Positions 3,050 to 21,248 of a stretch of DNA of 64,000 nt are shown here, piece by piece. Under the pieces are notes generated by a model. The model did no database searches. It was not told the origin of the DNA and saw only the letters and a program-made list of their open reading frames with translations. This stretch comes from Candidatus Shapirobacteria bacterium (GTDB lineage Bacteria > Patescibacteriota > Microgenomatia > UBA12405): assembly GCA_041665485.1 (NCBI GenBank), contig JBAYIT010000002.1, positions 197,867 through 261,866 on the forward strand, given 5' to 3'. Positions within the stretch are counted from its first letter, which is position 1. The number at the start of each line of letters is the position of its first letter. A program made the translations under genes and the position numbers.

Positions 3050-3858
3050 GGTCGTAAGGTAGAACTCATAAAGCGTATTAATTCTTGATTGACTAGTGGT
3101 TTGACCGTTATATTGCAGGCTGATAATGCTCCGGCAAAACTAATGCTTAAGTCGTTTAGCTTTTTAATTGCAATAGTAAACTCCGAAGTTTTTCTGGCAT
3201 TACAGCCCATGGATAACACCGCGTAATGGCGGGTAATAAATAAGGTGTCAGTACTTATGAATTTTGACAAATCATTGATATAACGGGTGATAAGGGATTC
3301 GCGGTTAAGTTTCGCCCCACCATAAAGTGAAAAGAAGTGTTTAGAATAATCCTTAATTTCGGCTTTTTCTTTTCGGACAATCAATTGTACCGGTGCAGGT
3401 AGTATATTTATCGCTTGTTTAAGTCTAATAAAGAAGTTTTCGCGATCTTGTTCGTTTAGCAAAGCTACATCAAATGGTTCAATCGCTAGCATTTTGACAA
3501 TACTGCCGTTTCTGACAATCAGATTATCCTGAATGGTAAAGTCAGTAAAATACGGCTCAATATCTTTGAAGCGTTTTTCTTTTCTTCCAGATTTAAAGGT
3601 AAGCAGGCGTGGTACAACTTTATAAATTGGCTGGTTATCAATATTTTGGGTAATAAAAGCGACAAAAAAGATGGTCGTTACAATCACCGATGAAATGTAA
3701 TAGCTCCACTGAAACAAGTGGAGAATATGGTGAAAAACTAAATATAAAGATATGGCTATGATTACAGTCCCAGCAATCACCAGAACAGAGTCTGTAAAAA
3801 ACAGACTTCGCAGTATATGAACCCTAATATCGTCTTTATATATTCTTACGTTTTTCAT
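3046..3858 (-). CDS. Membrane protein; possible VirB3 / VirB4 N-terminal domain-like component (split VirB4)
   Basis: Two N-terminal TM helices then a soluble domain; stop overlaps the start of the VirB4-like ATPase (atga), suggesting translational coupling. Confidence 0.35.
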   Translation of the reverse strand: MKNVRIYKDDIRVHILRSLFFTDSVLVIAGTVIIAISLYLVFHHILHLFQWSYYISSVIVTTIFFVAFITQNIDNQPIYKVVPRLLTFKSGRKEKRFKDIEPYFTDFTIQDNLIVRNGSIVKMLAIEPFDVALLNEQDRENFFIRLKQAINILPAPVQLIVRKEKAEIKDYSKHFFSLYGGAKLNRESLITRYINDLSKFISTDTLFITRHYAVLSMGCNARKTSEFTIAIKKLNDLSISFAGALSACNITVKPLVNQELIRFMSSTLRP

Positions 3859-5599
3859 AGTTTTTATGAGAATAAATCCTAATTATTGGATCAGTCCCTT
3901 TTTTAGCTTGACGCTCAACTATCACACCCGAAATACCATATGCTTGATTTCTGCTCTTTGCTATTTCCAAGAAATTTTTAACTCGGTGGGGTGGGCTAGC
4001 TTGATTGATAAAGGCATAATTAATTTCTTTACCCTGTCGTTTTGATTCTTCCATCGCATTAAAATTATGAGGGTTAGGGTTGTTTTTGCCAAAACTGGAG
4101 AGATCAATAAACTGCTCGTGATCAAAAGTCACTTTTTGCAGTTTATCTTCTGCTACGCCATCCTGTACTGCCTCTAATCTGGATGGATAGTATGAAACTA
4201 AAGCATTTTTCTTGTCTTCATATTTATACGCATCGCCGCTTACCGAAACTACTCCCTGCTTTGGGTTTTCTGTTTCTATCACAAATCCTTTACCTGTTAA
4301 ATTTTGAGAAAAAGGAGGAACGGTAACTTTTTCTTTACCTTGGGGATTTTGATTGTTACCCTTATTAAAGATGTTTGTTTTCTGATTCGAGTTGGTATTA
4401 TCGGAAGTTGCGGTTTGTTTACTATTATAATCACCACCCGAGTCTCTGTTTTGAAATAACGATCTGGTTTTATGTCCCAATTGACTGCTGATATTTCCAC
4501 CGATAAAGCCTCTGGAGAAATTACTAATGGGTGATGTTACCGCTTTAGATAATCCCCGATACGATATTGCTGCATACATGTTTCCAGACATAGCCGTCCA
4601 AACATCTCCAAACATTTTAGCCACCAGCACATTAACACTACCTAAAAAAAATAGGAAGCCGGTGTAAAAGAAAAGCATACCCACACTTGGACCTTTAGAA
4701 TTTAGAATGCTGGTAAAAATATCAGTAGCAATCGCAAACCCCAAAACAAAGGCAGGTTGCTCGATGAGAAAGGTAAACCACGATTTAAAAAAGGTATGCA
4801 CGATCCCTTCTGTTCGTTCTGACAGGGCAAAAGGGAGAATAATCGGATAAAGCACTCCCAAAAATAATAAAGAGGCGAAGCGAATTACAAACTGAAATCC
4901 TATGTAAATAAAGCCACATAGTAAAAAGACAAAGGTTAAAGCAAAAAGAAGAATTTGGACAATAAACTTACCAAGTGAATGGAAGATTCCACCCCGTAGC
5001 GAGATATCAAATGAGGGGATACCAAAAGTCTCTGACGGATTGTTATTTTCACTTATCGCTTCTTGAGATTTATTAAAGTAGTCATCTAAAAACCCGGTAA
5101 ACTTTTGGGTAGTTGAGATTTTATCAACCAAAAGATTGTTAAACTGGATACTGTAAGAAAGTACTGATGGTACGGTGACAAAAAGAACAATAACTATAAG
5201 TAAACGAACAAAAAAAGATTTTAGTTGTTGAGCATTATCAGAGCCGAGCTTTGTCATGGCAATACCGGCGATGATTATGGCAAGTATTGGGATAGCAATT
5301 TGATAGAACATATCTCTATATTTGGTAACTCCCGGAATTTCAGAGTTATCTTTTAGCTTGATGGTGTTAGCCAGCGGATCGGGAGTATAGAAAATAAAAC
5401 CACCTAAAAAGGAATCAAATCCGGCAATAAAGTTTTTTAGCAGTGAGATTATTGAAGACGGTTCGTTTTGAACAGTAAATTCATTTGTATACTGAATGAC
5501 GGGAGCAGGTGTTGGAGTCGGGGTTTCTTGAGCTAATACAATTTGTGAAGTTAAGAGAAAGGCAATTGTTGTAAAAGCGATTATTAATGCTATTTTCAT
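3836..5599 (-). CDS. Polytopic membrane protein with signal peptide; VirB6/TrbL-like candidate
   Basis: Signal peptide MKIALIIAFTTIAFLLTSQIVLA, PT-rich linker, multiple hydrophobic helices, C-terminal N/Q/S-rich tail; sits between pilin-like and VirB4-like genes. Confidence 0.4.
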   Translation of the reverse strand: MKIALIIAFTTIAFLLTSQIVLAQETPTPTPAPVIQYTNEFTVQNEPSSIISLLKNFIAGFDSFLGGFIFYTPDPLANTIKLKDNSEIPGVTKYRDMFYQIAIPILAIIIAGIAMTKLGSDNAQQLKSFFVRLLIVIVLFVTVPSVLSYSIQFNNLLVDKISTTQKFTGFLDDYFNKSQEAISENNNPSETFGIPSFDISLRGGIFHSLGKFIVQILLFALTFVFLLCGFIYIGFQFVIRFASLLFLGVLYPIILPFALSERTEGIVHTFFKSWFTFLIEQPAFVLGFAIATDIFTSILNSKGPSVGMLFFYTGFLFFLGSVNVLVAKMFGDVWTAMSGNMYAAISYRGLSKAVTSPISNFSRGFIGGNISSQLGHKTRSLFQNRDSGGDYNSKQTATSDNTNSNQKTNIFNKGNNQNPQGKEKVTVPPFSQNLTGKGFVIETENPKQGVVSVSGDAYKYEDKKNALVSYYPSRLEAVQDGVAEDKLQKVTFDHEQFIDLSSFGKNNPNPHNFNAMEESKRQGKEINYAFINQASPPHRVKNFLEIAKSRNQAYGISGVIVERQAKKGTDPIIRIYSHKNYEKRKNI

Positions 5600-6089: not shown

Positions 6090-8117
6090 TTACTCGTATC
6101 TTAAGGCGTTAAGAGCAGAGATTTTGGTGGCCCGTCTGGCCGGATAAATACCGGTAATAATCCCGACCAAAAGTGAGAGAAAGATGATTACAAAAACAAA
6201 CGATAGTGGTAAATATGAGATATCGACAAACCCAATCCCTTTAAAGATCGAAAAAATGGAAATAACGATTCCGGCAAACTTGCCCAAGATAAATCCTAAA
6301 ATAATTCCCAAAATCCCTCCGAAAAATCCCATAATCATGGATTCTGTTAAAAATAATTCCTGTACCTCAGAAGATTTCATTCCCATTGCTTTCATTAACC
6401 CTACTTCTCGAGTTCGCTCCAGAAGCGATACGGTGAGGGTGTTAAACATGCCCAAAGCGGCTACTGACAAAGCTACCATACCCAGAAGCATCAAAAGAGT
6501 TCTGGCTGTCGCAAAAAGCGAGTTAATTTGTTCTACCGTATCGGCAACCGATCTGGTTACGTACCCCATAGCTTCAACTTGTTTTCTGACTTTGGGAAGG
6601 TCTGTCTGGTTATTAACCACTACTTTTACTTGTGAGTAGTTCGTAATTCCCAAAGTGCGAAGGTCAATAAAAGGCACGTAAAAAACCGGTGTTTTTTCCT
6701 CTGGCGTCACTCCAATGATGGTATATTCTGCTGGAGCCGATTCAATTTTTTGGGTGGGATCAGTCAGAAGATCGCCAACAACAACAAACGAAGCCGTAAA
6801 CTTTTTCCCGACTGCTTCACTTTCTTTTATCCCAAGAACCGATAACATGGCACGGTTGACCACCGCTTGCTTTCTTGCTTCAGCAGCTAATTCAATTGTT
6901 TTTGTTTCCGGGGTTGCAATAACGCCGGCTTCAGAGGCAATTTCTACCCAACCAACCATATCGTCAACTTTTTTACCTGAAGCAGTTGAGTTATTAGTCG
7001 TTACACCTAAAACCTGTGGTTCAGTCACATTTACACCAGAGATTTTTATATTTATCTCGGCAAAAAAGCCGGTCTTTTGCACCTGCTTATTATCCTCATC
7101 CCGTAAAACAACATATTTTCCCTCCTCACAATCTCCTTGTGTTTCTGAATCACATTTTTCCTCTTTCCAAAGAAGCACTGGCGCTTTGATCCATTTCCCC
7201 AATGATGATCCTTCTTCTGTATTGCCGAATTCACCTGCGCCGTAGTCTGATAAATAACTGTCACCCCAAACTTCTTCGCCCGCAGACGTTCCTTCAACAC
7301 GCTTGGTATACCCTAAAACCTTAGCGGTAGTTGATGGGTTTTCCCGCACCCTAATCCAGGAAGAAGCATCTACAGCATAGTCTAATTTCTGTATTGACTC
7401 ACCTTGTTTACCAATCCGGTTTTCCGTTGTTGCACCGGCCACCTGCCCGGTCTTTTCCAATAATTCTGCCGTCAGCTCATTGCTGTCAAAGATTTTTCCC
7501 TCAACTGGCTTGATGGCTGATTGTTGGAGGTAGTCGGTCGTCACTCCGTAAACTGCCATATCGGACTGCGAATTTTGATAGTTGACTCGGCCAACAACGG
7601 CAATCAAGGGTAGTGCCATGTTAATCGCCGATATATCTTTAAAGTTGGAAAGAGTTTTGTCGTCAATTTTTATTTTTCCTCCCGATTGAGTGGTTATATC
7701 GGCTTGTCTCATCTCCTCAAGTCGGGCCACCCGGGTAATCACCAGTTGTTGCAAACCATAACCAATGGATACCAAAAACACAATCGCTCCAATGCCAATC
7801 ATCATCCCGCCGATAGTAACTATAGTTCTCGTTTTTTTGGATTTCATATTTCGAACCGAAAGTTCAATCAGGTCAACTCTTGAAATCGTGTTGCTGCGAT
7901 GTTGGTCTAAAAGCTTTGTTGCTTTGACGTAAAATGATAGAAGTGGAGAGGTTAATCGTGCTTTTACGCCTTTGGGAAATAATTTCCAATTAGAAATCGT
8001 AATTATTCCATTTGCGGTCACATAAAGCATGATAAGCAAGGCAAACGTTACCGCATGCCACAAAGCACCGGTAAAGTTTAAAAAACTAAATTTAGATTTT
8101 GATTGGTAATTTTGCAT
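6090..8117 (-). CDS. MacB/FtsX-family ABC transporter permease with large extracytoplasmic domain (SH3b-like insert)
   Basis: N-terminal TM, roughly 400-aa periplasmic domain, C-terminal FtsX-type 3-TM bundle; paralog of 28705..30582. Confidence 0.75.
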   Translation of the reverse strand: MQNYQSKSKFSFLNFTGALWHAVTFALLIMLYVTANGIITISNWKLFPKGVKARLTSPLLSFYVKATKLLDQHRSNTISRVDLIELSVRNMKSKKTRTIVTIGGMMIGIGAIVFLVSIGYGLQQLVITRVARLEEMRQADITTQSGGKIKIDDKTLSNFKDISAINMALPLIAVVGRVNYQNSQSDMAVYGVTTDYLQQSAIKPVEGKIFDSNELTAELLEKTGQVAGATTENRIGKQGESIQKLDYAVDASSWIRVRENPSTTAKVLGYTKRVEGTSAGEEVWGDSYLSDYGAGEFGNTEEGSSLGKWIKAPVLLWKEEKCDSETQGDCEEGKYVVLRDEDNKQVQKTGFFAEINIKISGVNVTEPQVLGVTTNNSTASGKKVDDMVGWVEIASEAGVIATPETKTIELAAEARKQAVVNRAMLSVLGIKESEAVGKKFTASFVVVGDLLTDPTQKIESAPAEYTIIGVTPEEKTPVFYVPFIDLRTLGITNYSQVKVVVNNQTDLPKVRKQVEAMGYVTRSVADTVEQINSLFATARTLLMLLGMVALSVAALGMFNTLTVSLLERTREVGLMKAMGMKSSEVQELFLTESMIMGFFGGILGIILGFILGKFAGIVISIFSIFKGIGFVDISYLPLSFVFVIIFLSLLVGIITGIYPARRATKISALNALRYE

Positions 8118-8125: not shown

Positions 8126-8884
8126 TTACGCTTGGATTTTTAAATCTTTACCTCGCTTACTTTTAATTTCACTCATTAACTCTTTTTGGTCTTCCTTGTC
8201 ATAGACACCAACAACACTCCCGTTAAACATCTTTACCGCCGTAATGGCATACTTTAAATACTCTAAATCATGGGTGACCATCAAAATGGTTTTTTTGTGT
8301 TCTTTATTTAACTCCGTTAACAGTTTCATTAGTCCTTGTCCTGATTCATAATCCAAGTTTCCGGTTGGTTCATCAGCAATAATTACTTCAGGATTGGTAA
8401 CCAAGGCCCTAGCTAGTGCTACCCGCTGTTGTTGGCCGCTTGATAATTCAGTTGGGATGTACGTTGCCCAATTGATCATTTCCACCGTTTCCAATATAAC
8501 TCGGGCTTTTTCCAAACTATGAAAACGGTCAAGTCCCAAAAGCTGCAGGGGGAAGGCGACGTTTTCGACAACCGTAAGCGACCTAATCCAGTTTGGCTGT
8601 TGATAGACGATGCCGGTATGCTCTTTTCTAAAATCCGACCGGTCATCTTCGGTTAATCCATCGTAGAGATTTTTACCGGAAAAATACACACTTCCCTTAG
8701 TTGGTGCTTCCAGCCCCAGCATGGTATGTAACAGCGTTGACTTACCACAACCGGATGGGCCAAAAATAATGACAAAGTCACCACTTTTAATTTCCAAAGA
8801 AATATCTTTAAGTACCGGTACATCTTGGTCGCCGATATGGAACGACTTGGCCACATTTTGTATTTTAAAAAGATAATCATTCAT
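8126..8884 (-). CDS. ABC transporter ATP-binding protein (MacB/LolD-like)
   Basis: Walker A GPSGCGKST, signature LSGGQQQRVALARAL, Walker B IIADEPTGNLD, H-loop VTHD. Confidence 0.9.
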   Translation of the reverse strand: MNDYLFKIQNVAKSFHIGDQDVPVLKDISLEIKSGDFVIIFGPSGCGKSTLLHTMLGLEAPTKGSVYFSGKNLYDGLTEDDRSDFRKEHTGIVYQQPNWIRSLTVVENVAFPLQLLGLDRFHSLEKARVILETVEMINWATYIPTELSSGQQQRVALARALVTNPEVIIADEPTGNLDYESGQGLMKLLTELNKEHKKTILMVTHDLEYLKYAITAVKMFNGSVVGVYDKEDQKELMSEIKSKRGKDLKIQA

Positions 8885-8886
8885 AG

Positions 8887-11800
8887 TTATTTATTAGTTC
8901 CTCCCATAAATCCAAAGGCTTGCTGCAGGTTAGTAATCACCAGATTTAAAGCGTTATCGGTGGCCTTAGGTGTAATCGTTACCGTGTCAATTGAGTTGCC
9001 GACATTACCCACTTTGTCTTTGGAAGTTGACCGCACATGATAAACTTTTGCTGGCGTTAAGTTTGAAATTATTACCAAGTGGTTTATGGTCAAGTTAGTA
9101 TCTTCTTGCGTTTTTTGTGAGTAGGTTGTGCCGGTACCTTCGCCAAACTCTACTTGAGAAGTTGCCGGTTCATCCGTATTCCAGGATACGATTAGTTGGG
9201 CGGTTGATTCCTGGGCGGTTGAAGCGGTGGGTGGGATAGTTGCACCTTCAACATGAAGCTCTAAAACCTGCGGCGGTCTGGTATCGGTTGCTGTTGTCAG
9301 CCGCTGCGAATCAGAAGCAGCTTCGTTGCCGATTTTATCGCGCCCTCTTACCACCATAATATAATTTGTTTGGGGCAAAAGTCCGCGGATAATCATTCGG
9401 TGGTCACCTTTCGTTAAAGCGACATTAACTTCATCGCGGGCGTCAGCGGAATTACCCTCAGGATAGTAGGTGACAATTGAAGAGACTTCGGTGTTGGTAA
9501 TCCACGTCACTAAAAGAGTTGATTGAGCGGTGTTGGCTACTTGCTGAATCCTGACATTGCTAATTTTTGGCCTTGGTAGGGTAGTAAAGTCCAAGATTGT
9601 GCCTTCGTATTCGCTTGATTCGCTGTCAAAGGTATTGATTTTATAGTAATACTTTGTCCCATCCAAAAGTCCTGTGAGTTCGGCTGTGTAAGTGGTCTCA
9701 GTAGTTGAGGTTGAAATTTCTTTAGCTCCGCCAAAACTGGTGGTGGTGCCATAGTATATTTTGATTTTTGAGGCGTTGTTGGAAGTGAACTGGATAATAG
9801 CGGTAGTTAAACCAATGTTTTTAGCGCTGACGTCTTTAACGGTTGGCGCCGAAGAGGTAGAAAAGCTTTTTTCTTCACTGGCTCCAGTATTACCGTCTTC
9901 ATCTGTCCATTTGGTTTTATAGTAATAGGTTGTTCCCGGATTTAAGCCGGTCAACTGGATTGAATGCGAAGAAACCTGAGAGGAGTTGCTGGGCTCAACC
10001 GTATTATAACTACCGCTGGTTGTGCCGTACTGCACTTTGGAATCCGAGCTTCTGGAAGTTGTCCAGGTAATTGTGGCTTTTTTTGTGGTAATTGATCCGA
10101 CGTCTGGTCCGGTTGAGAGACTAGGGGCTGATGTCCATTTACCTGTAGGAGTGATTGAAACTGCATTAGATCCCGATGATTGGGCGTTAGCGCCGTCTTT
10201 GGCGTAAATCTTGTAGTAGTATTTGGCCGATGTAGGAGTGTTATCTACATAAGAAAGGCCCGAAGTTGTTCCGGTTTGAGCAAAAGTTGTGCCGTCAGTT
10301 GAGCGATAAACAAGATAGGTCAGATTTCCCGCACCTTTATAAGTTGGCGCCGTCCAAGTCAGGGTCACATTCCATTGGGATTGAGATTTAATCGAAGAAT
10401 CGGAAGCCACCAGATTCCCGGGATTGTCAGGATCAGTCGAGTCAAGAGTAAATGACGCCGAAATATAGTTTGAAGGCGAATAATTGGGAGTTGACGCATT
10501 ATCAATTGCCACAACATTGACGGTATTTGTGCCTTTGTTCACACCGGGCAAGGCTGCGGCCGAAACCGTTCGTGATGTTCCGTTGTCAATATAGGTAGTG
10601 GCGTTTCCTTGTAAAGTCGCCAAGGTTGAAGGCGGCGAAGTGTTGATCATATAATAATAATGGGCCACAGTTTTACCATTGGTCGGTGTTGCCTCTGGCC
10701 AGGATAAAGCATATGAATTAGAAGTTGAAGTTGATGGGGTTACGGTTACAGTCGCTAACCCGTCAAACGCCGGAGCTGCCCCGCCGTAATTGAGATTACA
10801 GGTTCGGATTGTCGCATCAGTTGAAATATTACCGGCAATATCGACTGTCCGGAAATAAATGATGTTATTGCCAGAATCAATTCCGTGCGGCAAACTATCA
10901 GACTTACCGTCCTGGGCCTGGGTTAATGTCCGCGAAGTGGCACTTGTGGGAACGTAATTATTGATACCAACCAGTGCTTCCGTGGTTGTCCCCAGCCATG
11001 TACCAGTTGTAGTATTAATCTGGTATTGCCAACCTAATATTCCCGATCCAACCACTTCGGTAACCGTATCAGAGGATGCCACGCTGTCAGTTGTCGGCCA
11101 GGAAAAGTTCATATCAGCAACATTGGAAAAACTACCCGAAGCGCAGGAAATATAGGCAGTATTTAAAGGCCGAGTATCGTCATACCTGAATTTAAAAGTA
11201 GCCGAGTTTCCGGCAAAAATATTACCTGATTTATCCACTACCTTGACAGCAAAAAGATAAGACTTAGGTGAGGTTGACAGAGGCGTTGTAAAATGACTTG
11301 CTAAATCAATACTGGTTCCGGTCACAATAAATTGGCAGGTCGTGCCGTCTGTTGGCACCGGACTGGTACTTAAAAGTCCCTTGGCTGTTGCCGGATCATT
11401 ATCTGGGATATCATCTCCGTTATTATCAAGGCTTAATGACAAACAATAGCCTTTAACTCCACTTTCGTTAGGATTATCGGCTCCGGCTGTCCAGGAAAAG
11501 TAAGGAGATGGGTTATTCGTCCAACCGTTTGAAGCCACCGTCGTTCCGCCGTTTGACCGAGACATTAAAATTGTAGAGGCATTACTTCCCCCGTTTGCAA
11601 CGTTTGGCGGGTTGGTGTCGGTGGTAAAACCAACTGATATATGAGGCAGTTTTGGTACATCAGCGCTTTCCGAGTTAAAAATAGCCTTAACTGAAATTTT
11701 ATGCGAAGTGGCAATAAGTGACGCATGTTGCATAATCGGGTTTTGTGCGTCCATTAGTTGTGCTGCCGTATTACCATCCGTTGCTCCGGCTACCACCCAA

Positions 11801-13767
11801 GAACTGCCGTTCCAATATTTCCAAGTGTTGCCGGACTCACAAGCTGTTCCCTGCCCGACACTTTTATTATCACTTCCAGCCGCGCCCAAATCATCGGTAC
11901 ATAATTGGTATTTGATGGTGGAGTTGCCAGTATGAGTGGCATCAGCCGTACAAACTGAACCAACCAGAGTTCCTTCACACAAATTGTCCCAGGTATTAAC
12001 CAGACCATTAAAATAACCGTCTTTATTGAAAACACTGTAGGTGCCTTGTTTTATCAAAGTCAGCTCATCAACTTTAACGGATTTGCCTCTTTTGACCAAA
12101 ACTCCGGCATCAACTGCGCTGTTAACACCGGTAACCGTGCCGGTTAATTTGTACCAGTTGCCGGTAACCGAAGTGTATGTGGGGCTGGTGATGGTGTTGC
12201 CGCCGTAATAAAGAGTAGCCACGGTGTCATCAACCACTCCACCAACCGGATCGGAACTCAAGTTATAGACATATGCTGAAATGGTGTAAGGAGCAGTATC
12301 GCCAACATTAACTGATTGATAGAGTTTGCCATCGACAATAGAGCCTATAGTAATTGTATTTCCACCGGCGCCGGGAAACCCGGAACTAGATGAGAAAGAT
12401 TGAGAGATTGCTACGGGACCACTGGCGCAGCGGAAACCAAGACTGTAGGCCGTACCCGTGGGCGCATAGATCAGATGCAAGGCGAACACACCCGCGCCCG
12501 TGGTATCGTTCCAAGCGCTGCCGCGTAAGAACGCGAAATTAGTGCCGTTTGTTCGAGCCCCCATATAATATTTACCCATGCCTTGAGCAGAGCCCCATGC
12601 AGTATTAGATGGCCTTAAAAGATCATAAGCTAAAGTACCGTAGTTACCGGCGCTGTTAAAGTACGGCCAATCAACATAAGCAGCAGTCTGAGCACTATCA
12701 GGTTTATTTTGTCCTAAAATTGAATCATTTGTCCACTCCCAGACGTTACCGGCCATATCCCAAATAATTTGTCCATTTGATAGAGTAAAAGTTCTTTTTT
12801 GTTTGCCTGAAGTATTATCGCAAACTGTTGCCCCTGTGGTTGTTTTATAACAGGCATAGGTGTCGTTGGTACTGGCATCAAGCGCCAGCCCCGTATCACC
12901 GTTTATGGCTTCGCTTACATTATCATTGTGGCCAGAGGCTAGCATGCCGGTTCCCGGCGTATTGCCGCATGGATAAACGCCATAACCGCCAACCGCAGTG
13001 CACCAGTTAGCGCTTTGACCTTCCGCATTGCGGGCAACTGTCATCCATTCGTTATTCGTAATCAGATGAGGGGCAGTAACTCCGACTCCCAATGACATAT
13101 TCGAACAGTAGCTTTCCGCATCGTTGGCGGTGCTGTCGTTTTGAGGAATATAGGCGATAGGAAAACCTTGGGCAGTTGAAACAACATGTTTTGCCCCAGT
13201 ACTATTACTACAGCTACATCCAGCTCCATTATTTCGGTACGTTCCGTATTGATCTCCCGTGCCATCTGCACCTGCCGAGCCATTACAGACATTACCTGAA
13301 GCGACCGTATTTCCCACATTGTCGCCGTCAGTGTCGCATTTGGCTTCATATTTCATTGCCAAAAAATTACCAGTAGGAGGATTATAGGTTGCGTTGGCGG
13401 GTACTTCTACCCAGCCGGAAGGGGGAACCGCGGCCACACTCCAAGAATCAGCATTATCTGTAAAGGCCGGATTAGCGAATTTATTAGCGCCAACTGTTCC
13501 GCCCGTTGGCTGTGCACCAGTATCATTAACCGTGGTTAAACTGGTCGTGTAGTCTGAAGCGGTCGCGCTTGAGAATGTCCATTCTTTTTTGCTGTCATTT
13601 AGGGCAAATACATTGGGAAATAGTTCTGATAAAGCCAGATAGGAACCGCCAAAAAGTCCGATTGTAATAAACAATATAGCCAACAGGTTAAACTGAAACC
13701 TGGAAAAATGAAATCGCGGCTCAAAGAAATACTTTTTAATGTTATGAATTAGGTTCATGTTGGTCAA
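8887..13767 (-). CDS. Giant (1626 aa) membrane-anchored surface protein: N-terminal signal-anchor, FGE-sulfatase/C-type-lectin-fold domain carrying the DGR variable region, long FN3/Ig-like repeat stalk; DGR target protein
   Basis: FGE/CLec motifs (NVWEWT, RGSAWN, GFRCAS); VR at codons about 411-450; C-terminal roughly 500 aa highly similar to the 23526..28031 protein. Confidence 0.8.
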   Translation of the reverse strand: MTNMNLIHNIKKYFFEPRFHFSRFQFNLLAILFITIGLFGGSYLALSELFPNVFALNDSKKEWTFSSATASDYTTSLTTVNDTGAQPTGGTVGANKFANPAFTDNADSWSVAAVPPSGWVEVPANATYNPPTGNFLAMKYEAKCDTDGDNVGNTVASGNVCNGSAGADGTGDQYGTYRNNGAGCSCSNSTGAKHVVSTAQGFPIAYIPQNDSTANDAESYCSNMSLGVGVTAPHLITNNEWMTVARNAEGQSANWCTAVGGYGVYPCGNTPGTGMLASGHNDNVSEAINGDTGLALDASTNDTYACYKTTTGATVCDNTSGKQKRTFTLSNGQIIWDMAGNVWEWTNDSILGQNKPDSAQTAAYVDWPYFNSAGNYGTLAYDLLRPSNTAWGSAQGMGKYYMGARTNGTNFAFLRGSAWNDTTGAGVFALHLIYAPTGTAYSLGFRCASGPVAISQSFSSSSGFPGAGGNTITIGSIVDGKLYQSVNVGDTAPYTISAYVYNLSSDPVGGVVDDTVATLYYGGNTITSPTYTSVTGNWYKLTGTVTGVNSAVDAGVLVKRGKSVKVDELTLIKQGTYSVFNKDGYFNGLVNTWDNLCEGTLVGSVCTADATHTGNSTIKYQLCTDDLGAAGSDNKSVGQGTACESGNTWKYWNGSSWVVAGATDGNTAAQLMDAQNPIMQHASLIATSHKISVKAIFNSESADVPKLPHISVGFTTDTNPPNVANGGSNASTILMSRSNGGTTVASNGWTNNPSPYFSWTAGADNPNESGVKGYCLSLSLDNNGDDIPDNDPATAKGLLSTSPVPTDGTTCQFIVTGTSIDLASHFTTPLSTSPKSYLFAVKVVDKSGNIFAGNSATFKFRYDDTRPLNTAYISCASGSFSNVADMNFSWPTTDSVASSDTVTEVVGSGILGWQYQINTTTGTWLGTTTEALVGINNYVPTSATSRTLTQAQDGKSDSLPHGIDSGNNIIYFRTVDIAGNISTDATIRTCNLNYGGAAPAFDGLATVTVTPSTSTSNSYALSWPEATPTNGKTVAHYYYMINTSPPSTLATLQGNATTYIDNGTSRTVSAAALPGVNKGTNTVNVVAIDNASTPNYSPSNYISASFTLDSTDPDNPGNLVASDSSIKSQSQWNVTLTWTAPTYKGAGNLTYLVYRSTDGTTFAQTGTTSGLSYVDNTPTSAKYYYKIYAKDGANAQSSGSNAVSITPTGKWTSAPSLSTGPDVGSITTKKATITWTTSRSSDSKVQYGTTSGSYNTVEPSNSSQVSSHSIQLTGLNPGTTYYYKTKWTDEDGNTGASEEKSFSTSSAPTVKDVSAKNIGLTTAIIQFTSNNASKIKIYYGTTTSFGGAKEISTSTTETTYTAELTGLLDGTKYYYKINTFDSESSEYEGTILDFTTLPRPKISNVRIQQVANTAQSTLLVTWITNTEVSSIVTYYPEGNSADARDEVNVALTKGDHRMIIRGLLPQTNYIMVVRGRDKIGNEAASDSQRLTTATDTRPPQVLELHVEGATIPPTASTAQESTAQLIVSWNTDEPATSQVEFGEGTGTTYSQKTQEDTNLTINHLVIISNLTPAKVYHVRSTSKDKVGNVGNSIDTVTITPKATDNALNLVITNLQQAFGFMGGTNK
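12364..12385 (-). promoter_or_regulatory. GC-rich hairpin (ggcgccgggaaacccgg) about 35 nt 3' of VR on the coding strand; candidate DGR target-recognition hairpin
   Basis: Stem ccggg/cccgg with aaa loop in otherwise AT-rich DNA; absent next to TR. Confidence 0.4.
12420..12535 (-). repeat. DGR variable repeat (VR), 116 bp, inside the giant surface protein gene
   Basis: 99 of 116 identity to TR at 15381..15496; all 17 mismatches are where TR has A on the coding (minus) strand; encodes ...APTGTAYSLGFRCAS. Confidence 0.85.
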
Positions 13768-14009
13768 TTCAGTTACATATAAATGTAACTGCTATCAGTA
13801 TGGCAAATTATCAATGTATATTCAATAGCATTTGAGATATCTACTCATCCCGACTTCTCCCTTTTTTGAGGTTGATAAATAATGTCTAAAAGACTAAAAA
13901 GACATTTGCAAATTTTTTCTGGCTTGCCATTTCTTTTTAACCCCCATATCTTCCCCTCGTGTTACAGATTCAGCATAACAAATAGCTGATCAAAACTAAA
14001 GGTGTGTTT

Positions 14010-15167
14010 TTAAGAAATAAATAAAAACCAGAGTATTATTGAGAACAACTTAAGTTGTTCATTAATTTTGGTTTTAATTTTCTCTTTTGATTTAATAATA
14101 GTTTTTTCAGTAGTGATATTTCTTTCAAATAGGTTTTTTTCTAACCCATAAGCATTGGCACGTTTTAGGTGCCCCCGAATCGAGCTGTAAGTTGCCTCAA
14201 GTTTATGCTCCTCGCCGTTCTTTAAGTTTTCATTTCTTCTCAACTTCAGCTTTTGTCTCATTCTTAAAAGTGTCTTCCCTCTAACAAGGACATGATCATA
14301 GAAAATAAGGTAGCCGACAAACGGTATCCCGCTTTTGACATTTTGGATTATGACTTTTTTAGGATGAAGACTAAGATGTAAATGACATTCCAAGAATGAT
14401 TTAAAATCCTCTTTAGTCTGTTTCAAATATTCTTTGTCAGAGTCAATAACCAAAAAGTCATCCATGTAGCGGGCATACCATCTGATATGTAAGGTTTCTT
14501 TGGCAAAATGATCAAGCTCGTTAAGATAAATATTGGCAAACAGTTGACTGGTTAAATTACCAATCGGTACACCCCGGCGCAGATCCGGATTAACCACATC
14601 TTCCGGTGCTTCAATCGGGCGGCCCTTGATATTAAAACATTTATGTTTAGTGATAATTTTTTCAATGAGCCTCTTTGTCTTATCACAAGGCACGGTTTTA
14701 TTGACAAGTGTCAGTAAGACATCCCAGGAAATGCTGGCAAAATATTTTTGAATATCCATCCTCAAACAATAAATTTGCGCGTCCTTTCCGTAAATTGACC
14801 TGGCCGCCTGTAAAAACTTTTTAATTCTGGATAAGCCGAAATGGGTGCCTTTATTCTTTCGGCAAGCGAAAGAATCGTAAATAAATTTTGATTCAAAAAG
14901 GGGCTCGATCCGAGAAACTAAAGAATGTTGGAGCACTCGGTCGCGAAATGCCGGTGCCGCCACCTTTCTTAGTTTAGGATCAGATACGGTAAAACAAACA
15001 TAGGATGAAGGTAAATAAGTCTCCAGTATTAATTCCCGTTGTAATTTAAACAAGTTGCTTTCCAGAAAAAAGCCATAATTGACGATATTACTTTTATACC
15101 GTTTGCATTTTCTGGCTGCCTGGTAGGCTGATAGCAGGTTGTTAAAATCATAGATTTCTTCATACAT
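14010..15167 (-). CDS. DGR reverse transcriptase
   Basis: RT motifs including PIGNLTSQLFANIYLNELD and YARYMDDFLV (YxDD); 385 aa with no maturase/endonuclease domain; TR and Avd-like gene immediately upstream. Confidence 0.85.
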   Translation of the reverse strand: MYEEIYDFNNLLSAYQAARKCKRYKSNIVNYGFFLESNLFKLQRELILETYLPSSYVCFTVSDPKLRKVAAPAFRDRVLQHSLVSRIEPLFESKFIYDSFACRKNKGTHFGLSRIKKFLQAARSIYGKDAQIYCLRMDIQKYFASISWDVLLTLVNKTVPCDKTKRLIEKIITKHKCFNIKGRPIEAPEDVVNPDLRRGVPIGNLTSQLFANIYLNELDHFAKETLHIRWYARYMDDFLVIDSDKEYLKQTKEDFKSFLECHLHLSLHPKKVIIQNVKSGIPFVGYLIFYDHVLVRGKTLLRMRQKLKLRRNENLKNGEEHKLEATYSSIRGHLKRANAYGLEKNLFERNITTEKTIIKSKEKIKTKINEQLKLFSIILWFLFIS

Positions 15168-15380
15168 ATTGATTCAACAAAAAGCGGGCCGGTTGTTAAG
15201 CCGGCCCACATACACTTAATCAGGTACCTATTTACCTTATCCCTGGTGTTTAATACAAGAATAAGAATACAGGCTTTATGTTCTCCCGCCATAAGCAGGA
15301 CAGAGAAAACCTGGTGATCGTTTGGACACCGAGTATATATCCTTGGACATATACCACTCCATCCTGGCGCATTATTTGGT

Positions 15381-15496
15381 CACTGGCGCAGCGGAAACCA
15401 ATATTGTTGTTCGTATTCGTGGGCGCATTGTTCAGATTCAAGGCGAACACACCCGCGTCTGTGGTATTGTTCCAATTGCTGCCGCGTTAGAACGCG
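15381..15496 (-). repeat. DGR template repeat (TR), 116 bp
   Basis: Homologous to VR at 12420..12535; Asn (AAY)-rich when read in the VR frame (NAPTNTNNNIGFRCAS); lies between the Avd-like gene and the RT. Confidence 0.85.
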
Positions 15497-15561
15497 TTAC
15501 GGTTTTCCCTAAGTATTTAGAATAACAGAATTTAACTTTTTATGCAGGGTTATCTGGCAGC

Positions 15562-15903
15562 TTAGTTTAGGTTTGTCCAACCGTAGAGGATTTTTCCTAT
15601 CTCATTTATTTTTTCAGCAGCATGTTTGTATTGGATAATACTCATGAAGTGAAGATCTTTTGTTAAACGGATAAGAATTCTTAGTTCATCCAGTTGATCG
15701 GACATTTGAAGTTGAATAACCTTTCTGGTGTTGTCCCTAATTTTATTAGCTTGAACCGAAGAAAGTAAAATCTTTAATCCCAACTCTTCCAAATGTTTCC
15801 CCAAAACCAGCCGATGACTTTTAGGAATCCTATTTATCAATGGATACAGCCAAAGGAGAAAGTCGTAAATTTTCTGGAAAATGATAAGTTTTTCGGCACC
15901 CAT
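15562..15903 (-). CDS. avd: Avd-like DGR accessory protein (four-helix-bundle family)
   Basis: 113 aa; KIYDFLLWLYPLINRIPKSHRLVLGKHLEE pattern resembles Avd/PF05635-type proteins; position immediately 5' of TR-RT. Confidence 0.5.
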   Translation of the reverse strand: MGAEKLIIFQKIYDFLLWLYPLINRIPKSHRLVLGKHLEELGLKILLSSVQANKIRDNTRKVIQLQMSDQLDELRILIRLTKDLHFMSIIQYKHAAEKINEIGKILYGWTNLN

Positions 15904-16853: not shown

Positions 16854-17172
16854 AACAATATATTACGCCTTTTTAAGTATTTATAACTCTTTTTTGATTC
16901 TTTGTCCTGTCCTGCTTTCTCATTATATGGGGTCCAAACCAGCTATCAAAAGGTGGGTGTTTAAGCCTGTAGAAAAATGCCATTAGGAATAATGCTTATT
17001 ATTTAAGGAATGCATTTTTCTAACAGGCATTAAAATCCTTTTTTCTCAAACTCCGTTTTTCGAAAAAACTTTTGACATCTGTTTTTCACCCCATACCCCT
17101 CTTTCAATGGACAGGACAAAAACATGTCTATCCAGATCATTATTAGTTTTTAAGAAAGGAGGTGAAAAGCGT

Positions 17173-17616
17173 ATGTATGTGCTGCCTAGTTTCAAAGGTT
17201 ACACCGTAGATGAAAGACTGAGCGAATTTCGCAAAGCAAAATACGGTGAAAGTTTAGAGTTTATAAGTTTCAAGAGCATTAAGGGTAAAAACCTGCTCTC
17301 AAAATATAGAAAGGAACAAACTATGATGATACTTACCAAAGAAATAATAAATAAATTGCCACCGCTCTACTCTCAAGAAAATGAGCCGGATCCGATGGTA
17401 ATCTGTAAATTCTTTTTCCCTGATTTCAGCTGGACCTGGTATGTAATCGAGTTTGACGGTAAAGATACCTTCTATGGATTAGTGGACGGCTTTGAGGAAG
17501 AGTTGGGATACTTTACTCTTACTGAACTTCTGGCTAACAGAGGTCAGCTTGGGCTTCCGATAGAACGGGATCGATTCTTTACACCCAAAAGACTATCAGA
17601 AGTCAGAAAGTCCTAA
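17173..17616 (+). CDS. DUF2958-family protein (typical of conjugative and mobile elements)
   Basis: LTKEIINKLPPLYSQENEPDPMVICKFFFPDFSWTWYVIEFDG matches the DUF2958 pattern; strong RBS aaaggaggtg 8 nt upstream of ATG 17173 (track ORF starts at 17107). Confidence 0.6.
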   Translation: MYVLPSFKGYTVDERLSEFRKAKYGESLEFISFKSIKGKNLLSKYRKEQTMMILTKEIINKLPPLYSQENEPDPMVICKFFFPDFSWTWYVIEFDGKDTFYGLVDGFEEELGYFTLTELLANRGQLGLPIERDRFFTPKRLSEVRKS

Positions 17617-17664: not shown

Positions 17665-18426
17665 CTAATTGATTTCTGCTTTTTTGAACAAGCTGATTTC
17701 CATACCATTTTGATCAATTTGATCTGTAGTAGTTGTGTAGAAATTGGCATTGATACCGCCTTCATCTCTGATATGTCTATAGATATGTTTTTCTATAAAT
17801 GCTCTAGTTAAATCATTCCTACAGATAAAGACGATATTAGTAGGTCTGTCTTCATCATTTTCAAAGTACTCCATAAATTTGTTAATTCTGCCTCTAATGG
17901 CATAGCGAGGCATCTTTTCGCTAAATATCTCCCCGACAAAATGCTCTAAGTGTTTTTCAGCTTTATATACATAGGCAAAATCAGGGAGTAATACCCTGAT
18001 AACTCCGTCTATAGGAAAGTCTTGCTGGGTATAAAATTTAAAATCAGCATGGTCTAAAGTATCAATGTTTAAGAGTTTGAGGTAAATATCCGCGATCAAA
18101 ATTGACTTATCAATAAAGCCGTTTGATCGTCGTTTTTCCTGACGAAATTTTTTTAGTAAGGAAACATTTATATCTTTTAGAGTTTTGAGATATTTAATCG
18201 AGTTAGTTGTTAAGTAGTATTTAGCCGGTAGTGTATTTTTCTGATAAGAGTTGTCGTAGATACGGCCAACATAGTTTTTTGCAGTTAAATCTTTTAGCCA
18301 GACATTGATATTTCGGTGATCTTTATTTTTAAGTAGTTTTTGAATTTGAATTCTATTTAAGAAGCGGAATCTATATAACAAGAGAATAATCTCTTTTTGT
18401 TTATTAGTTATATTAGGTATAGTCAT
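17665..18426 (-). CDS. Replication-relaxation family protein (plasmid/ICE-associated, N-terminal wHTH)
   Basis: N-terminal NKQKEIILLLYRFRFLNRIQIQKLL wHTH-like segment and about 250 aa length typical of PF13814-like proteins; adjacent to the coupling ATPase. Confidence 0.45.
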   Translation of the reverse strand: MTIPNITNKQKEIILLLYRFRFLNRIQIQKLLKNKDHRNINVWLKDLTAKNYVGRIYDNSYQKNTLPAKYYLTTNSIKYLKTLKDINVSLLKKFRQEKRRSNGFIDKSILIADIYLKLLNIDTLDHADFKFYTQQDFPIDGVIRVLLPDFAYVYKAEKHLEHFVGEIFSEKMPRYAIRGRINKFMEYFENDEDRPTNIVFICRNDLTRAFIEKHIYRHIRDEGGINANFYTTTTDQIDQNGMEISLFKKAEIN

Positions 18427-18578: not shown

Positions 18579-21248
18579 TCAAAGTGCCTTGATTTGTTCA
18601 AACTTATTCTCATTACCCGCGATAGTTTTCTTTGTTTTGAGAGTTACTGGTACACCTTGTTTAATCCCTGTTTTAGTGCCGTACAATGATCTTGAGTTGC
18701 TAATAGCTTTTTCCTTTGTGGCATTACTTCCGGTAATTGTAAAATCGTCAATCTCACCAGTAAAAGAATCTTGAGGTTCGAGGGCGTTTATTTTGATATA
18801 GAAATGATATGAGGGTAGGTTGCCAATTTGGCCTTCTTCTACTTGGGGCGCAAAAATTGGCAGGATTTTACTTTCATCCTTAGGGCTTGAGGTTCTAAAA
18901 GAGATAATTGTTCCGCTATTTCCAATGATCGTATCCAATAGATCGTCATCTAACTGGACAGTGTTTTGATGGGCTAGAATGGCACATAGTCGGTATTTTC
19001 GAGCCTCAGATAACACTTGAGCAAAGGTGGTTGTAGCAAAGTTTTGGAATTCATCAACATATAGGAAAAAGTCGGTTCGGTTACTTTCCAATAGATTAAT
19101 TCTTCGAAAAGCAGCCAGTTCCAGTTTGGCAATTATTAAGCTACCTAAAAAGAAAGAATTGTCCTCACCGATTTTTCCCTTGGACAGATCACATAAAAGT
19201 ATCTTCTTATTATCCATAATATCGTTAAAATCCAGCTTAGTTTTGGGTTGATTCAAAATATTACGCGTTAGGGTAGTGGTTAAGAATCGACCCAATTTAT
19301 TGGTAATGGGTGAAATTTGTTCCGCTCTCTGGTAACTTCCGGCAGCCCCAAACTCATTTTTCCAAAAGGTCTTTAAGACTTCATCAGTTAATTCATTTAC
19401 AACTCGTTTACGGTATTTGGTATCAGTTAGAAGTTCATATATGGTAAATAGAGTCGGTGTTTCAAGTTCTAAGGCAGTTAAAATGACATTTCTTAATATA
19501 TGCTCCATTCGGGGACCGGAATATCTGGCTTCGTATAGCTTATGAAATACGGATATAAGACTTGAGGTAATAAAATCTTTTTCCCGCTCTCTTTCAACTG
19601 GTGGTAAATCTTTAGGTAATTCCAGAAAATTTAGACCAATCGGATATTCGATATCATAGGGATTAAAGTAAACCACATCTTCGATTCGGTCTTTGGGGAT
19701 TATTTCCAGAAGTCTTTTTGATAAATCTCCATGAGGATCTATCACTGCCAAACCTTTACCATGGCCTAAATCTTGATAAATCATTTGTAGAAGTAAGGTA
19801 GTTTTACCTGTACCAGTTGCTCCGATCATGTAGGTATGGCGTCTTCGTTCTTCCAGTGTTTGACCAATAACTGTTTCTGTCTCGCCGTATTTGTTTTTGG
19901 CAAAAGTAATGTCAAAACCAATATCGGCTTTTTTTAATGATAAAGGAGGTGGTAATTGAGGACTTTTTATTTTTTGTAAATCTTCTGTTTGCGTAGTTGT
20001 AGTAAAAGGAAAGTGATACAAAGAAGAAAGTTCAGTTACCGATAAAATCGAGCTATTTGTAAGTACAGATAGGCGGTCAGTTAAAAGAATTTTGAAAATG
20101 TTGTCAAAAACCTTATTATGAAAAATCAAAGCTGATGAATCCTTAACCTGAAACGACTGATTGGGAGTGGCAAAAGTGTCAAAAGACGAGGTAAGACCGC
20201 TTAAACGTCTCTTATTGTTTTCTTGATCTTTAGTTTGGGAAATAAACCGAATGGTAACATCAAATAACGGCTGGTTAATCTTATCTTGAATGGTTTGATA
20301 AAGCTGTTGTTTTGGTAAACCAATTTCGTTTAAGCGTTTATTATTACCACCATCAAAGACCCACCAAGCGAGAAGTTGGGCATGATTATCTTTATCGAGA
20401 AACCAATCGATAAGAGTAAATGGTGAAAGAATTAAAACCAAAAATAGTCTAAAAATTAGATTAATAGCATCATAAAGTAAATTAACAACTGAAAGATTCA
20501 AACCGTTTCTAATTTTGTGTGAGATATCAGTGTTTCCCATAAATAACTCGCTAATTTCCCTGTTGTGGTGAGTAATTCTCGGATAGGTATTTTCTTGAAT
20601 CGGTGAACAGATGAATTGAAGAGAAACTAGCTCATTCTCAAGCAGTTTAGTCATGTGGGCTGTCACATATGCAATTGGATCATACTCATTAAGAGATGCT
20701 TGGCTTTGAAGCGGATATACATAAGAGCTTTTTAAACTAATTTCTTTGATACCAATAGGAAAACTAGTTAAACTATCATTTAAATAATCGGTAGTTTCTC
20801 TGATCTCAACTCCCGGAAGATAAGCTAACAGTGTTTTTTTAACAACGGATTTATCTTTATCTGAAATTCGTAGAATATACCTAATACCCAGTTGTTTGGT
20901 GGATACTAATTCAAAAGTTAGTTTTCTTTTAAAACCTATTATCCGCTCAATAAATGAATTTTGTTTTCCCAGCGAATGAAATAGGGTATAAAGCTCATTG
21001 GTTGATAAGGGGCTTTTTAAGGTTTTATCTGTTGGTCTGACTTCTAGGTATGCATAGCTTTCTGTAATTGCTTTTTTTATCCTGATATAGAGCAAAATGA
21101 CAGATACAACTCCTAAAAAGGAAAATATCGTTATCAGTAATACGGGAAGTGCAGATAAATATTGGCTAATTGGTGCGGTAAATAACCATGAGAGATAGCT
21201 TGGAAAAACTTTGGAATAATCTATAGTGGCAATGTTGCTGTCCATCAT
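18579..21248 (-). CDS. Type IV coupling protein (VirD4/TraG/TraD-like ATPase) with N-terminal TM helices
   Basis: Two N-terminal TM helices; Walker A GATGTGKTT followed by IDPHGDL; Walker B-like LYVDEFQNF; 889 aa. Confidence 0.7.
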   Translation of the reverse strand: MMDSNIATIDYSKVFPSYLSWLFTAPISQYLSALPVLLITIFSFLGVVSVILLYIRIKKAITESYAYLEVRPTDKTLKSPLSTNELYTLFHSLGKQNSFIERIIGFKRKLTFELVSTKQLGIRYILRISDKDKSVVKKTLLAYLPGVEIRETTDYLNDSLTSFPIGIKEISLKSSYVYPLQSQASLNEYDPIAYVTAHMTKLLENELVSLQFICSPIQENTYPRITHHNREISELFMGNTDISHKIRNGLNLSVVNLLYDAINLIFRLFLVLILSPFTLIDWFLDKDNHAQLLAWWVFDGGNNKRLNEIGLPKQQLYQTIQDKINQPLFDVTIRFISQTKDQENNKRRLSGLTSSFDTFATPNQSFQVKDSSALIFHNKVFDNIFKILLTDRLSVLTNSSILSVTELSSLYHFPFTTTTQTEDLQKIKSPQLPPPLSLKKADIGFDITFAKNKYGETETVIGQTLEERRRHTYMIGATGTGKTTLLLQMIYQDLGHGKGLAVIDPHGDLSKRLLEIIPKDRIEDVVYFNPYDIEYPIGLNFLELPKDLPPVEREREKDFITSSLISVFHKLYEARYSGPRMEHILRNVILTALELETPTLFTIYELLTDTKYRKRVVNELTDEVLKTFWKNEFGAAGSYQRAEQISPITNKLGRFLTTTLTRNILNQPKTKLDFNDIMDNKKILLCDLSKGKIGEDNSFFLGSLIIAKLELAAFRRINLLESNRTDFFLYVDEFQNFATTTFAQVLSEARKYRLCAILAHQNTVQLDDDLLDTIIGNSGTIISFRTSSPKDESKILPIFAPQVEEGQIGNLPSYHFYIKINALEPQDSFTGEIDDFTITGSNATKEKAISNSRSLYGTKTGIKQGVPVTLKTKKTIAGNENKFEQIKAL

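Follow-up and report, generated by a model that had tools for sequence, protein, structure and literature searches.

The 64,000-nucleotide stretch of contig JBAYIT010000002.1 from Candidatus Shapirobacteria bacterium that was analysed here (the window) very probably carries a complete, functional and recently active diversity-generating retroelement (DGR) on the chromosome of this member of the Patescibacteria (candidate phyla radiation, CPR). All parts of such an element are present: an accessory variability determinant gene (avd), a non-coding template repeat (TR), a reverse transcriptase (RT) gene and a target gene that contains the variable repeat (VR). The assignment is carried by a divergence between TR and VR that is confined to template adenines and by two VR alleles in one natural population, which differ in the same adenine columns and hardly anywhere else. 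The coordinates of the features are collected in Table 1.

Core components and adenine-confined divergence

In an ungapped alignment on the minus strand, TR (15381-15496) and VR (12420-12535) are identical at 100 of 116 positions, and all 16 mismatches fall on TR adenines (A>G 8, A>T 4, A>C 4). The TR holds 31 adenines, 16 of which are changed in the VR, and the probability that every mismatch would hit an adenine by chance is 2.6e-12 (hypergeometric). The initial annotation of the window had counted 99 matches and 17 mismatches; the pairwise alignment with its tally by TR base corrects this count and bears out the adenine-only pattern. A search of the window with the TR pattern, in which each adenine was allowed to be any nucleotide (A->N), recovered two copies, the TR and a single VR, with none expected by chance. 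Read in the VR frame, 29 of the 31 TR adenines occupy codon positions 1 or 2 and ten codons are AAY, and the Asn-rich peptide previously quoted for the TR (...NAPTNTNNNIGFRCAS) and its VR counterpart (...HLIYAPTGTAYSLGFRCAS) are both correct. Codon-table arithmetic over the 19 adenine-containing codons inside the repeat gives about 1e16-1e17 potential peptides. The homology stops abruptly at CCAGTGA(T), beyond which the flanks are unrelated, and in the window the last codon differs, being GAC in the TR and GGT in the VR. In seven related loci (L010, L013, L018, L019, L021, L023 and L030) the TR ends in ...CCAGCGAT and the VR in ...CCAGTGAT, a fixed C/T difference at a non-adenine position that is reminiscent of the Bordetella initiation of mutagenic homing sequences (IMH*/IMH), which set the direction of transfer.

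The open reading frames (ORFs) of target, RT and Avd lie where the initial annotation had placed them, with a 385-aa YMDD-containing RT (14010-15167) between TR and target and a 113-aa protein 5' of the TR, and the Avd-like character of the latter is borne out by family models. It matches the Pfam family bAvd (PF22296, E 1e-21) and scores 88.2 bits against the NCBIfam model NF033474 DivGenRetAVD, above the curated cutoff of 80, in addition to weak sequence matches to Bordetella Avd (4dwl and 8ub7_B). The RT matches Pfam RVT_1, and its closest solved relative is the RT of a Bordetella phage (bRT, 8ub7_A, E 1.3e-42). It contains the motifs IGxxxSQ (as PIGNLTSQ) and YMDD, and in the printed alignment it keeps equivalents of bRT residues K29, F66, R74, I181, G182, Q187, D138 and D215/D216, which include catalytic and adenine-mutagenesis residues.

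The repeats could alternatively have arisen by an ordinary partial gene duplication, or the nearby RT could belong to a group II intron or a retron. Weak matches of the RT to group II intron, retron and Drt models do occur, and some database entries label its homologues as 'retron-type' or 'group II intron' RTs. However, group II intron RTs match only with an E of 2.5e-13 and retron RTs likewise only at about 1e-13, so that the match to bRT is better by about 30 orders of magnitude, and the scores of 116 against the group II maturase model TIGR04416 (cutoff 300) and of 47 against the retron model (cutoff 235) are below the cutoffs. Neither intron RNA domains nor an Rfam intron or retron RNA match were found, an Avd is present, and the mismatches are restricted to adenines. 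These tests refute the alternative, to which we attach practically no credence, and they exclude the affinity to group II intron or retron RTs that the initial annotation had named as a reason for rejecting a DGR. The RT's C-terminal tail (aa about 350-385, window 14010-14110) is Lys-rich and then hydrophobic (…KEKIKTKINEQLKLFSIILWFLFIS); it is outside the alignment in most homologues, many of which span only about 90% of the query.

A second VR allele was found in the Joint Genome Institute (JGI) metagenome 3300037810, in which the locus is represented by a 16.4-kb contig (L001) and a 2.6-kb contig (L002). L001 encodes an RT that is 100% identical to the RT of the window, and it aligns to positions 25167-12431 with 19 mismatches. 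Only three of these (at 21494, 16002 and 14657) are found in the about 12.6 kb outside the VR, none of them in the TR, which is thus unchanged, whereas the other 16 fall within the 105 bp of the VR that are covered, each one in a TR-adenine column (16/16). The divergence is 0.02% in the flanks (99.98% identical) and 15% in the VR, a more than 600-fold excess, and about 11 of the about 12 affected codons change the amino acid. Population-level variability confined to adenine sites of the VR, as expected by the initial annotation, was hence observed with assembled alleles from one sample, not with reads. L001 ends inside the VR (window 12431). L002, which covers a part of the target, starts 8 bp before the VR (window 12543) and carries the allele of the window. 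A mis-join of TR and VR as the origin of the VR sequence in L001 was ruled out, as 10 adenine sites distinguish it from the TR and its flanks remain VR-specific. The JGI assembly breaks at the VR; L001 and L002 overlap across it, yet they were left unjoined because they carry different VR alleles. A search of the metagenome contig collection for further alleles with the A->N TR pattern yielded none, the source sample evidently being outside this collection.

Table 1. Features of the DGR and of the surrounding gene cluster in the window
Feature	Position	Strand	Remarks
Target gene	8887..13767	-	1626-aa ORF
GC hairpin CCGGG-TTT-CCCGG (candidate)	12371..12383	-	36 nt after VR end, linker codons 462-466
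Candidate IMH-like determinant	12384..12419	-	36-nt stretch from VR to hairpin; 20-locus alignment
VR	12420..12535	-	codons 411-450 of target, last strands of the head
RT gene	14010..15167	-	385 aa, RVT_1 (Pfam), YMDD
Spacer of DGR RNA	15168..15380	-	213 nt, conserved structured non-coding RNA
Terminator-like hairpin and T-run	15184..15209	-	GGGCCGG...CCGGCCC, between spacer RNA and RT start codon
Stop duplex, 3' strand	15302..15311	-	within spacer
Invariant GAUCAC	15314..15319	-	within spacer
TR	15381..15496	-	116 nt, non-coding, between avd and RT gene
Stop duplex, 5' strand	15501..15510	-	ends 4 nt before TR
avd	15562..15903	-	113 aa; Pfam and NCBIfam
ABC ATPase	8126..8884	-	Pfam; 2-nt gap downstream of target
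MacB/FtsX-type permease	6090..8117	-	Pfam; linked module, not DGR proper
M23 peptidase	147-917		
VirB4-like ATPase	914-3049		P-loop_TraG/AAA_10
TrbL/VirB6-like protein	3836-5599		weak; E 8e-4, below gathering score
DUF2958 protein	17107-17616		
Replic_Relax protein	17665-18426		
TrwB/TraD-like coupling protein (T4CP)	18579-21248		
Large serine recombinase	21698-23230		abuts tRNA-Leu and tRNA-Val
Paralogous module	23526-30582	+	across the tRNAs; 1501-aa protein, DUF2341 head, same Fn3-like rod
ABC ATPase of paralogue	28035-28742	+	
MacB/FtsX permease of paralogue	28705-30582	+	

An internal variable repeat in a giant target

The target consists of a hydrophobic segment at aa about 24-48, the only one in the protein, a head of the formylglycine-generating enzyme (FGE)/C-type lectin (CLec) type at aa about 100-451 that is terminated by the VR, a Ser/Gly linker (GPVAISQSFSSSSGFPGAGG) and about 1150 aa of fibronectin type III (Fn3)/Ig-like beta-sandwiches. 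A Pfam search identified FGE-sulfatase in the head and Fn3/Pur_ac_phosph_N repeats at aa 1200-1600. An AlphaFold2 (AF2) model of the head (aa 60-480, 89 homologues) reached a predicted local distance difference test score (pLDDT) of 80.5 and a predicted template modelling score (pTM) of 0.83, with VR residues above a pLDDT of 90 and a fall below 50 right after GFRCAS. In a Foldseek comparison of this model with the Protein Data Bank (PDB), TaqVP (5vf4), a DGR variable protein from Thermus, ranked first (E 3e-7), followed by FGE, TvpA of Treponema (2y3c) and Mtd of Bordetella. Because of these AF2/Foldseek matches and the Pfam FGE-sulfatase assignment, the VR is placed at the C-terminal end of the CLec/FGE domain, which according to the model it closes as in classical DGR targets. 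This agrees with the initial annotation, in which the VR was said to end at the GFRCAS of an FGE/C-type-lectin fold.

The VR thus lies at the C-terminal end of its domain, whereas the protein continues for 1176 residues downstream of codons 411-450. In this respect the target departs from the C-terminal VR that has been called a hallmark of DGRs (PMC8144416, PMC11661182). Since internal VRs are a rare but documented minority, mostly in Ig-class targets (Wu et al., PMC5758913), the internal position is compatible with membership of the DGRs. A false fusion of two ORFs was ruled out for the 1626-aa ORF by the occurrence of the same continuous ORF, with 1116-1163 residues behind its VR, in at least 14 independent genomes.

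The part of the rod from aa 461 to 1200 was modelled by AF2 as a string of Fn3/Ig-like beta-sandwiches (pLDDT 85), with contactin, the relaxed cardiac thick-filament chain, fibronectin and gp130 as best Foldseek matches. Gram-positive adhesins are built in the order signal, binding head, long stalk and C-terminus. The domain order of the target is the same, and by this analogy an adhesin-like arrangement may account for the N-terminal position of the variable head and hence for the internal VR. As to the ends of the protein, the ORF starts with TTG, and the ATG three codons further on (MNLIHN...) is just as plausible a start (window 13620-13767, aa 1-60). The hydrophobic segment is followed by a (V/I)FALNDT motif that is kept in homologues and could be a signal-peptidase cleavage site. 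The last about 30 residues (...TITPKATDNALNLVITNLQQAFGFMGGTNK, window 8890-8980) are kept across the rod family and are non-hydrophobic; they may serve as a signal in sorting or docking, perhaps one recognised by the neighbouring MacB-type transporter.

VRs have been described to reside at C-termini so that homing signals escape coding constraint (Roux et al., PMC8144416). Downstream of the internal VR of the window, two candidate signals are found in coding sequence. The first is the 36-nt stretch between VR and hairpin (GTCCCGTAGCAATCTCTCAATCTTTCTCATCTAGTT), which is conserved at the nucleotide level across the clade (20-locus alignment) and absent after the TR, and which is a candidate for an IMH-like determinant. 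The second is the GC hairpin, which in the window ranks in the top 2.2% of the 28-nt windows of the target gene. Among 20 related loci, the counterpart of this hairpin outranks every other 28-nt hairpin within about 4.4 kb in stability in about half, and about 13 have it in the top about 2%. Its position is kept, the stem sequences differ, and the encoded peptides vary (GRAGGG, GREAAGG, GFPGAGG and others). In Bordetella phage BPP-1 the structure of the hairpin stem matters and its sequence does not, and the working hairpins of phage DGRs have 7-10 bp stems and GRNA loops (PMC3240598). By analogy, the GC hairpin is a candidate target-recognition hairpin or cruciform, and the Ser/Gly linker is apparently the place at which the DNA homing signals are accommodated.

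The spacer between TR and RT gene showed clear signs of a conserved RNA structure. The RNAalifold consensus of 19 loci comprises 41 pairs, 26 of them with compensatory changes, and holds three covarying hairpins. Pairing is kept in 93.2% of the cells, compared with 40-46% when the partners were slid by 1-3 columns; 144 cells are doubly changed, compared with 20-38 in the slid controls, and none of 500 shuffles reached the observed values. No Rfam family matched the TR/spacer RNA, either at the gathering threshold or at E<=1. The 3' end of the TR, GUGAU(C), has its complement in the invariant GAUCAC. Two nucleotides past it, the segment GGUUUUCUCU pairs with AGGGAAAACC, which is located just 5' of the TR. 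An equivalent stop duplex of 8-13 bp is found in 16 of 16 related loci with different sequences (e.g. GGGAGGGCU/AGUCCUCUC and GGAGGAUAUC/GAUAUUCUUUCC), usually among the best 0-2.5% of matched controls; the duplexes are weaker in three loci, including L004, L007 and the nearest relatives of the window, at only 0.07-0.13. Behind the stop duplex come a short stem-loop and a stretch rich in A (AACAUAAAG) that is conserved.

This layout is that of the Bordetella bRT-Avd-RNA structure, with primer strand, 2-nt linker, stop duplex, stem-loop and adenosines in the same succession (bioRxiv 10.1101/2023.10.23.563531), and the 15501-15510 duplex is the analogue of the 'cPRT Stop' duplex of Bordetella. 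By analogy to that structure, it supports a cis-primed cDNA synthesis that would be bounded by the TR. The terminator-like hairpin in front of the RT gene is strong and conserved in closer relatives, and it would imply either read-through into the RT gene or a separate promoter as the source of RT expression.

Translated in the VR frame, the TR gives N-A-F-TAA-R-G, with the TAA at 15486-15488 of the minus strand, and both VR alleles have TTA (Leu414) at this codon. The TRs of the related loci L011, L017 and L048 carry TAA at the same codon, and the TR of L016 has a stop elsewhere. In the VR of L017 the codon is TGT with both adenines changed, and codon 414 is therefore inside the mutagenised tract. 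L048, the closest relative, has TGA at this codon of its VR as well as a 1-nt indel. In the protein databases, seven head clusters end exactly at ...AF, at least 10 others run into a frame-shifted VR (..WLSLRQ or ..AAPVIP), and in many rod gene calls the start lies within the VR or immediately behind it. Given the internal VR, alleles with a stop or a frameshift remove the whole rod.

Such alleles may be a cost of mutagenesis, an assembly artefact or the sign of a reversible switch. As a switch, which would be an addition to the diversification of the head and not a replacement for it, homing-introduced stops and RT-made indels would truncate the protein before the 1170-aa rod (OFF), and a later homing event would restore it (ON). 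The recurrent template stop, the position of codon 414 within the tract mutagenised in L017, the interrupted VR of L048 and the truncated or split database entries are all consistent with this. On the other hand, about 40 of 48 assembled VRs are intact, both alleles described here are in frame, most TRs of the clade encode Leu or Gln at the codon in question, and the stops and indels may as well be deleterious costs of mutagenesis or errors from the assembly of mixed populations. An added ON/OFF switch is thus considered rather unlikely.

A number of observations weigh against a functional and recently active DGR. The evidence for activity consists of two assembled alleles, not reads, and assemblers can blend hypervariable alleles. 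The hairpin of the window is short, with its 5-bp stem and TTT loop, in comparison to those of the tested phages, and 5 of 20 relatives have a weak hairpin or none. The primer duplex between TR and spacer is invariant, so that covariation is neutral with respect to it, and one of its six pairs is mismatched in the window. The terminator-like hairpin separates the spacer from the RT gene and complicates RT expression, and the in-frame TAA of the TR predicts a truncated target after some of the homing events. For the target, a surface location and a role in binding are suggested solely by the domain make-up.

Some of these points would also suit a complete DGR that is now an inactive relic, in which case the TR/VR differences and the two alleles would represent old inherited variation between co-existing strains. 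The small number of alleles, both from assemblies, the stop codon in the TR and the terminator-like hairpin are in line with such a relic. Yet strains that differ by 0.02% over 12.6 kb and by 15% in the VR, in adenine columns only, are difficult to reconcile with it. Furthermore, all ORFs and catalytic motifs are intact, and across the clade the cis-acting elements, both RNA and DNA, show clear purifying and compensatory selection. A relic is accordingly regarded as highly improbable, and a functional, recently active DGR as the preferred explanation.

For a functional DGR the following course of events is proposed. A transcript of the avd end, the TR and the about 210-nt spacer would fold into the conserved structure, in which GAUCAC of the spacer would bind the 3' end of the TR, and the spacer 2 nt further on would bind the segment directly 5' of the TR. 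RT and Avd would then copy the TR into cDNA with misincorporation opposite the 31 template adenines. The cDNA would replace the VR, i.e. codons 411-450 of the 1626-aa target, in a homing process that may be guided by VR-specific sequence and by the linker-encoded GC hairpin just after the VR. The outcome would be an FGE/C-type-lectin head, held between the N-terminal signal or anchor segment and the about 1150-aa Fn3-like rod, in which about 19 residues of the ligand-binding face occur in up to about 1e16-1e17 variants. The likely role of these variants would be to alter which cell or surface ligand is bound by the target.

Conservation in the clade and comparison with known systems

All RT homologues at 49-81% identity are from Patescibacteria, with metagenome-assembled genomes (MAGs) of WWE3, Roizman-, Woese-, Shapiro-, Nomura-, Dojkabacteria and others. 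Several cassette-bearing MAGs (L006, L010, L014, L019-L024) carry Gammaproteobacteria or Pseudomonadales in their titles, probably as a result of mis-binning or mislabelling. The order TR-RT-target, with an own adenine-biased TR/VR pair, was found in 17 GTDB loci, and in the related loci avd precedes the TR on the same strand. The target ORF is intact in 14 of the 17 loci; its length is 1360-1628 aa, the VR is located at aa about 345-485, and another 948-1163 residues follow. A typical target of the clade has about 1550 aa, about 1150 of which follow the VR. A scan for the VR/linker junction added 30 metagenome contigs with the same gene order, most of them with their own adenine-biased TR/VR pair. 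By eye, about 8 of these 30 end within about 250 nt of the VR, a mild enrichment that is not relied on here.

The avd-TR-RT-target order and the giant target, which the initial annotation had considered unusual, are thus the rule in this clade of Patescibacteria. The avd-TR-RT core as such is the commonest DGR architecture (B1; Wu et al., PMC5758913), and it is the internal position of the VR that departs from the textbook layout. More distant relatives of the RT (L025, L026, L031-L039) belong to classical DGRs with an upstream target and a C-terminal VR. A search of a plasmid collection returned only distant RTs (<=39% identity) and no annotated close relative. The genomes of L003 and L009 come from groundwater data sets that were used in earlier surveys of CPR DGRs.

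The DGR of the window shares with that of Bordetella phage BPP-1 (mtd-avd-TR-brt) the succession avd-TR-RT on one strand, the Avd, and the catalytic and adenine-mutagenesis residues of the RT. Adenine-only divergence of TR and VR, an AAY-rich TR, a VR that ends a CLec domain and, after the VR, a GC hairpin (in the window a candidate recognition element) are further features in common. In contrast to BPP-1, the element is cellular and not phage-borne, its target is located downstream of the RT gene instead of upstream, and its VR is internal instead of C-terminal. The hairpin is 36 nt away, within coding sequence and of a 5-bp/3-nt type, and a pair of near-identical 21-mers corresponding to IMH and IMH* is lacking. 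The identity of the RT to bRT is only about 35-40% over aligned regions.

The known DGRs of Patescibacteria (DGR clade 2, Roux et al. 2021, PMC8144416; 'CPR set', Wu et al. 2018, PMC5758913) come from the same host group. Of the CPR DGRs, 90% have the architecture B3 with avd on the opposite strand (Wu et al., PMC5758913), unlike the clade described here, which is B1 and thus a minority among them. Recognisable domains, transmembrane or other, are typically missing from CPR targets, whose VRs are C-terminal (Roux et al., PMC8144416), in contrast to the hydrophobic N-terminal segment, FGE-type head, internal VR and long Fn3 rod found here. A cellular DGR with a surface-displayed target of CLec fold is also known from Legionella pneumophila (ldtA), where it resides on an integrative conjugative element (ICE) (PMC5758913). 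The two have in common the cellular location, the CLec-fold target and the setting among conjugation/ICE genes. However, LdtA is a small lipoprotein of a diderm and has its VR at the C-terminus, whereas the target of the window is giant and rod-like, with a near-N-terminal head, in a monoderm-type cell, and its surrounding element is known from genes alone, with no att repeats found.

As judged from the model, the head has the FGE-subtype C-type-lectin fold of TaqVP (5vf4), TvpA (2y3c), Mtd (1yu0) and FGE (2q17, 1z70), with the VR as final strands ending in GFRC. In comparison to these solved variable proteins and FGEs, the template modelling scores (TM-scores) are low (0.2-0.44) and the identity is 14-18%. 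The head is also larger (about 350 aa, with long insertions), and about 1176 further residues follow instead of a stop.

This kind of system is already known, since DGRs are abundant in CPR, genomes of this clade are contained in earlier survey data sets, and the mechanism is ordinary. Paul et al. 2017 are said to have reported the activity of CPR DGRs in natural populations. As far as could be checked, a clade-wide internal VR with homing signals apparently in the linker has not been described. The same apparently holds true for a Bordetella-like RNA layout in a distant phylum, for a stop codon encoded in the template, and for an obligatory MacB partner in a type IV secretion system (T4SS)/ICE-like neighbourhood. 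Patescibacteria are tiny bacteria with a life attached to other cells, and the basis of their partner recognition is poorly understood. The locus offers a concrete and widespread candidate for this recognition, an about 1600-aa rod-like protein with a lectin-fold tip that is rewritten by a DGR. Moreover, it is a natural test of the rule that VRs sit at C-termini and shows how a DGR can diversify an internal domain. This is useful knowledge for annotation pipelines, by which such targets may be missed or split, and for the engineering of DGR-based mutagenesis of internal protein segments.

Genomic neighbourhood

The target gene is followed by genes for an ABC ATPase and a MacB/FtsX-type permease, the closest solved relatives of the latter being YtrF, MacB and LolC/E/F. 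All 17 related genome loci with sufficient flanking sequence, and 13 metagenome contigs, have this ABC/MacB pair after the target. To judge from the genes present, the DGR is located within a conjugative-T4SS/ICE-like cluster (window 147-23461), which includes the peptidase, VirB4-like, TrbL/VirB6-like, DUF2958, Replic_Relax, coupling and recombinase proteins listed in Table 1. Of the 16 relatives with sufficient upstream sequence, about 10 keep the coupling protein, the Replic_Relax protein, DUF2958 and the recombinase in their positions. The cluster yielded no canonical MOB relaxase, and the tRNA-Leu/Val region has no repeat elsewhere in the window that could represent an att site, apart from similarity between tRNAs.

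In a 2025 survey of the T4SS of Patescibacteria no adhesins were detected, and DGRs, RTs and ABC partners were not mentioned (PMC12102498); the terms RVT, Avd, FtsX and FGE are absent from its supplements. The giant DGR-diversified protein and its MacB-type ABC partner could form a partner or host-cell recognition adhesin of the T4SS/ICE-like machinery, in which the DGR would retune docking and, in addition, ON/OFF switching of the fibre might occur. This proposal is tentative and for the present on the unlikely side.

Across the tRNAs, on the plus strand, the window contains a paralogous module with its own ABC ATPase and MacB/FtsX permease. Its 1501-aa protein combines a DUF2341 head with the same Fn3-like rod; in a third group of rod proteins, nothing but a signal peptide and a small N-terminal region of another kind precedes the rod. 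According to the search with the A->N TR pattern, a VR is present only in the CLec-headed copy and not in the 1501-aa paralogue. In some relatives the rod of the target is nearer to that of the paralogue (62-71% identity) than to the target rod of the window (47-50%), and these identities suggest an exchange between target and paralogue copies.

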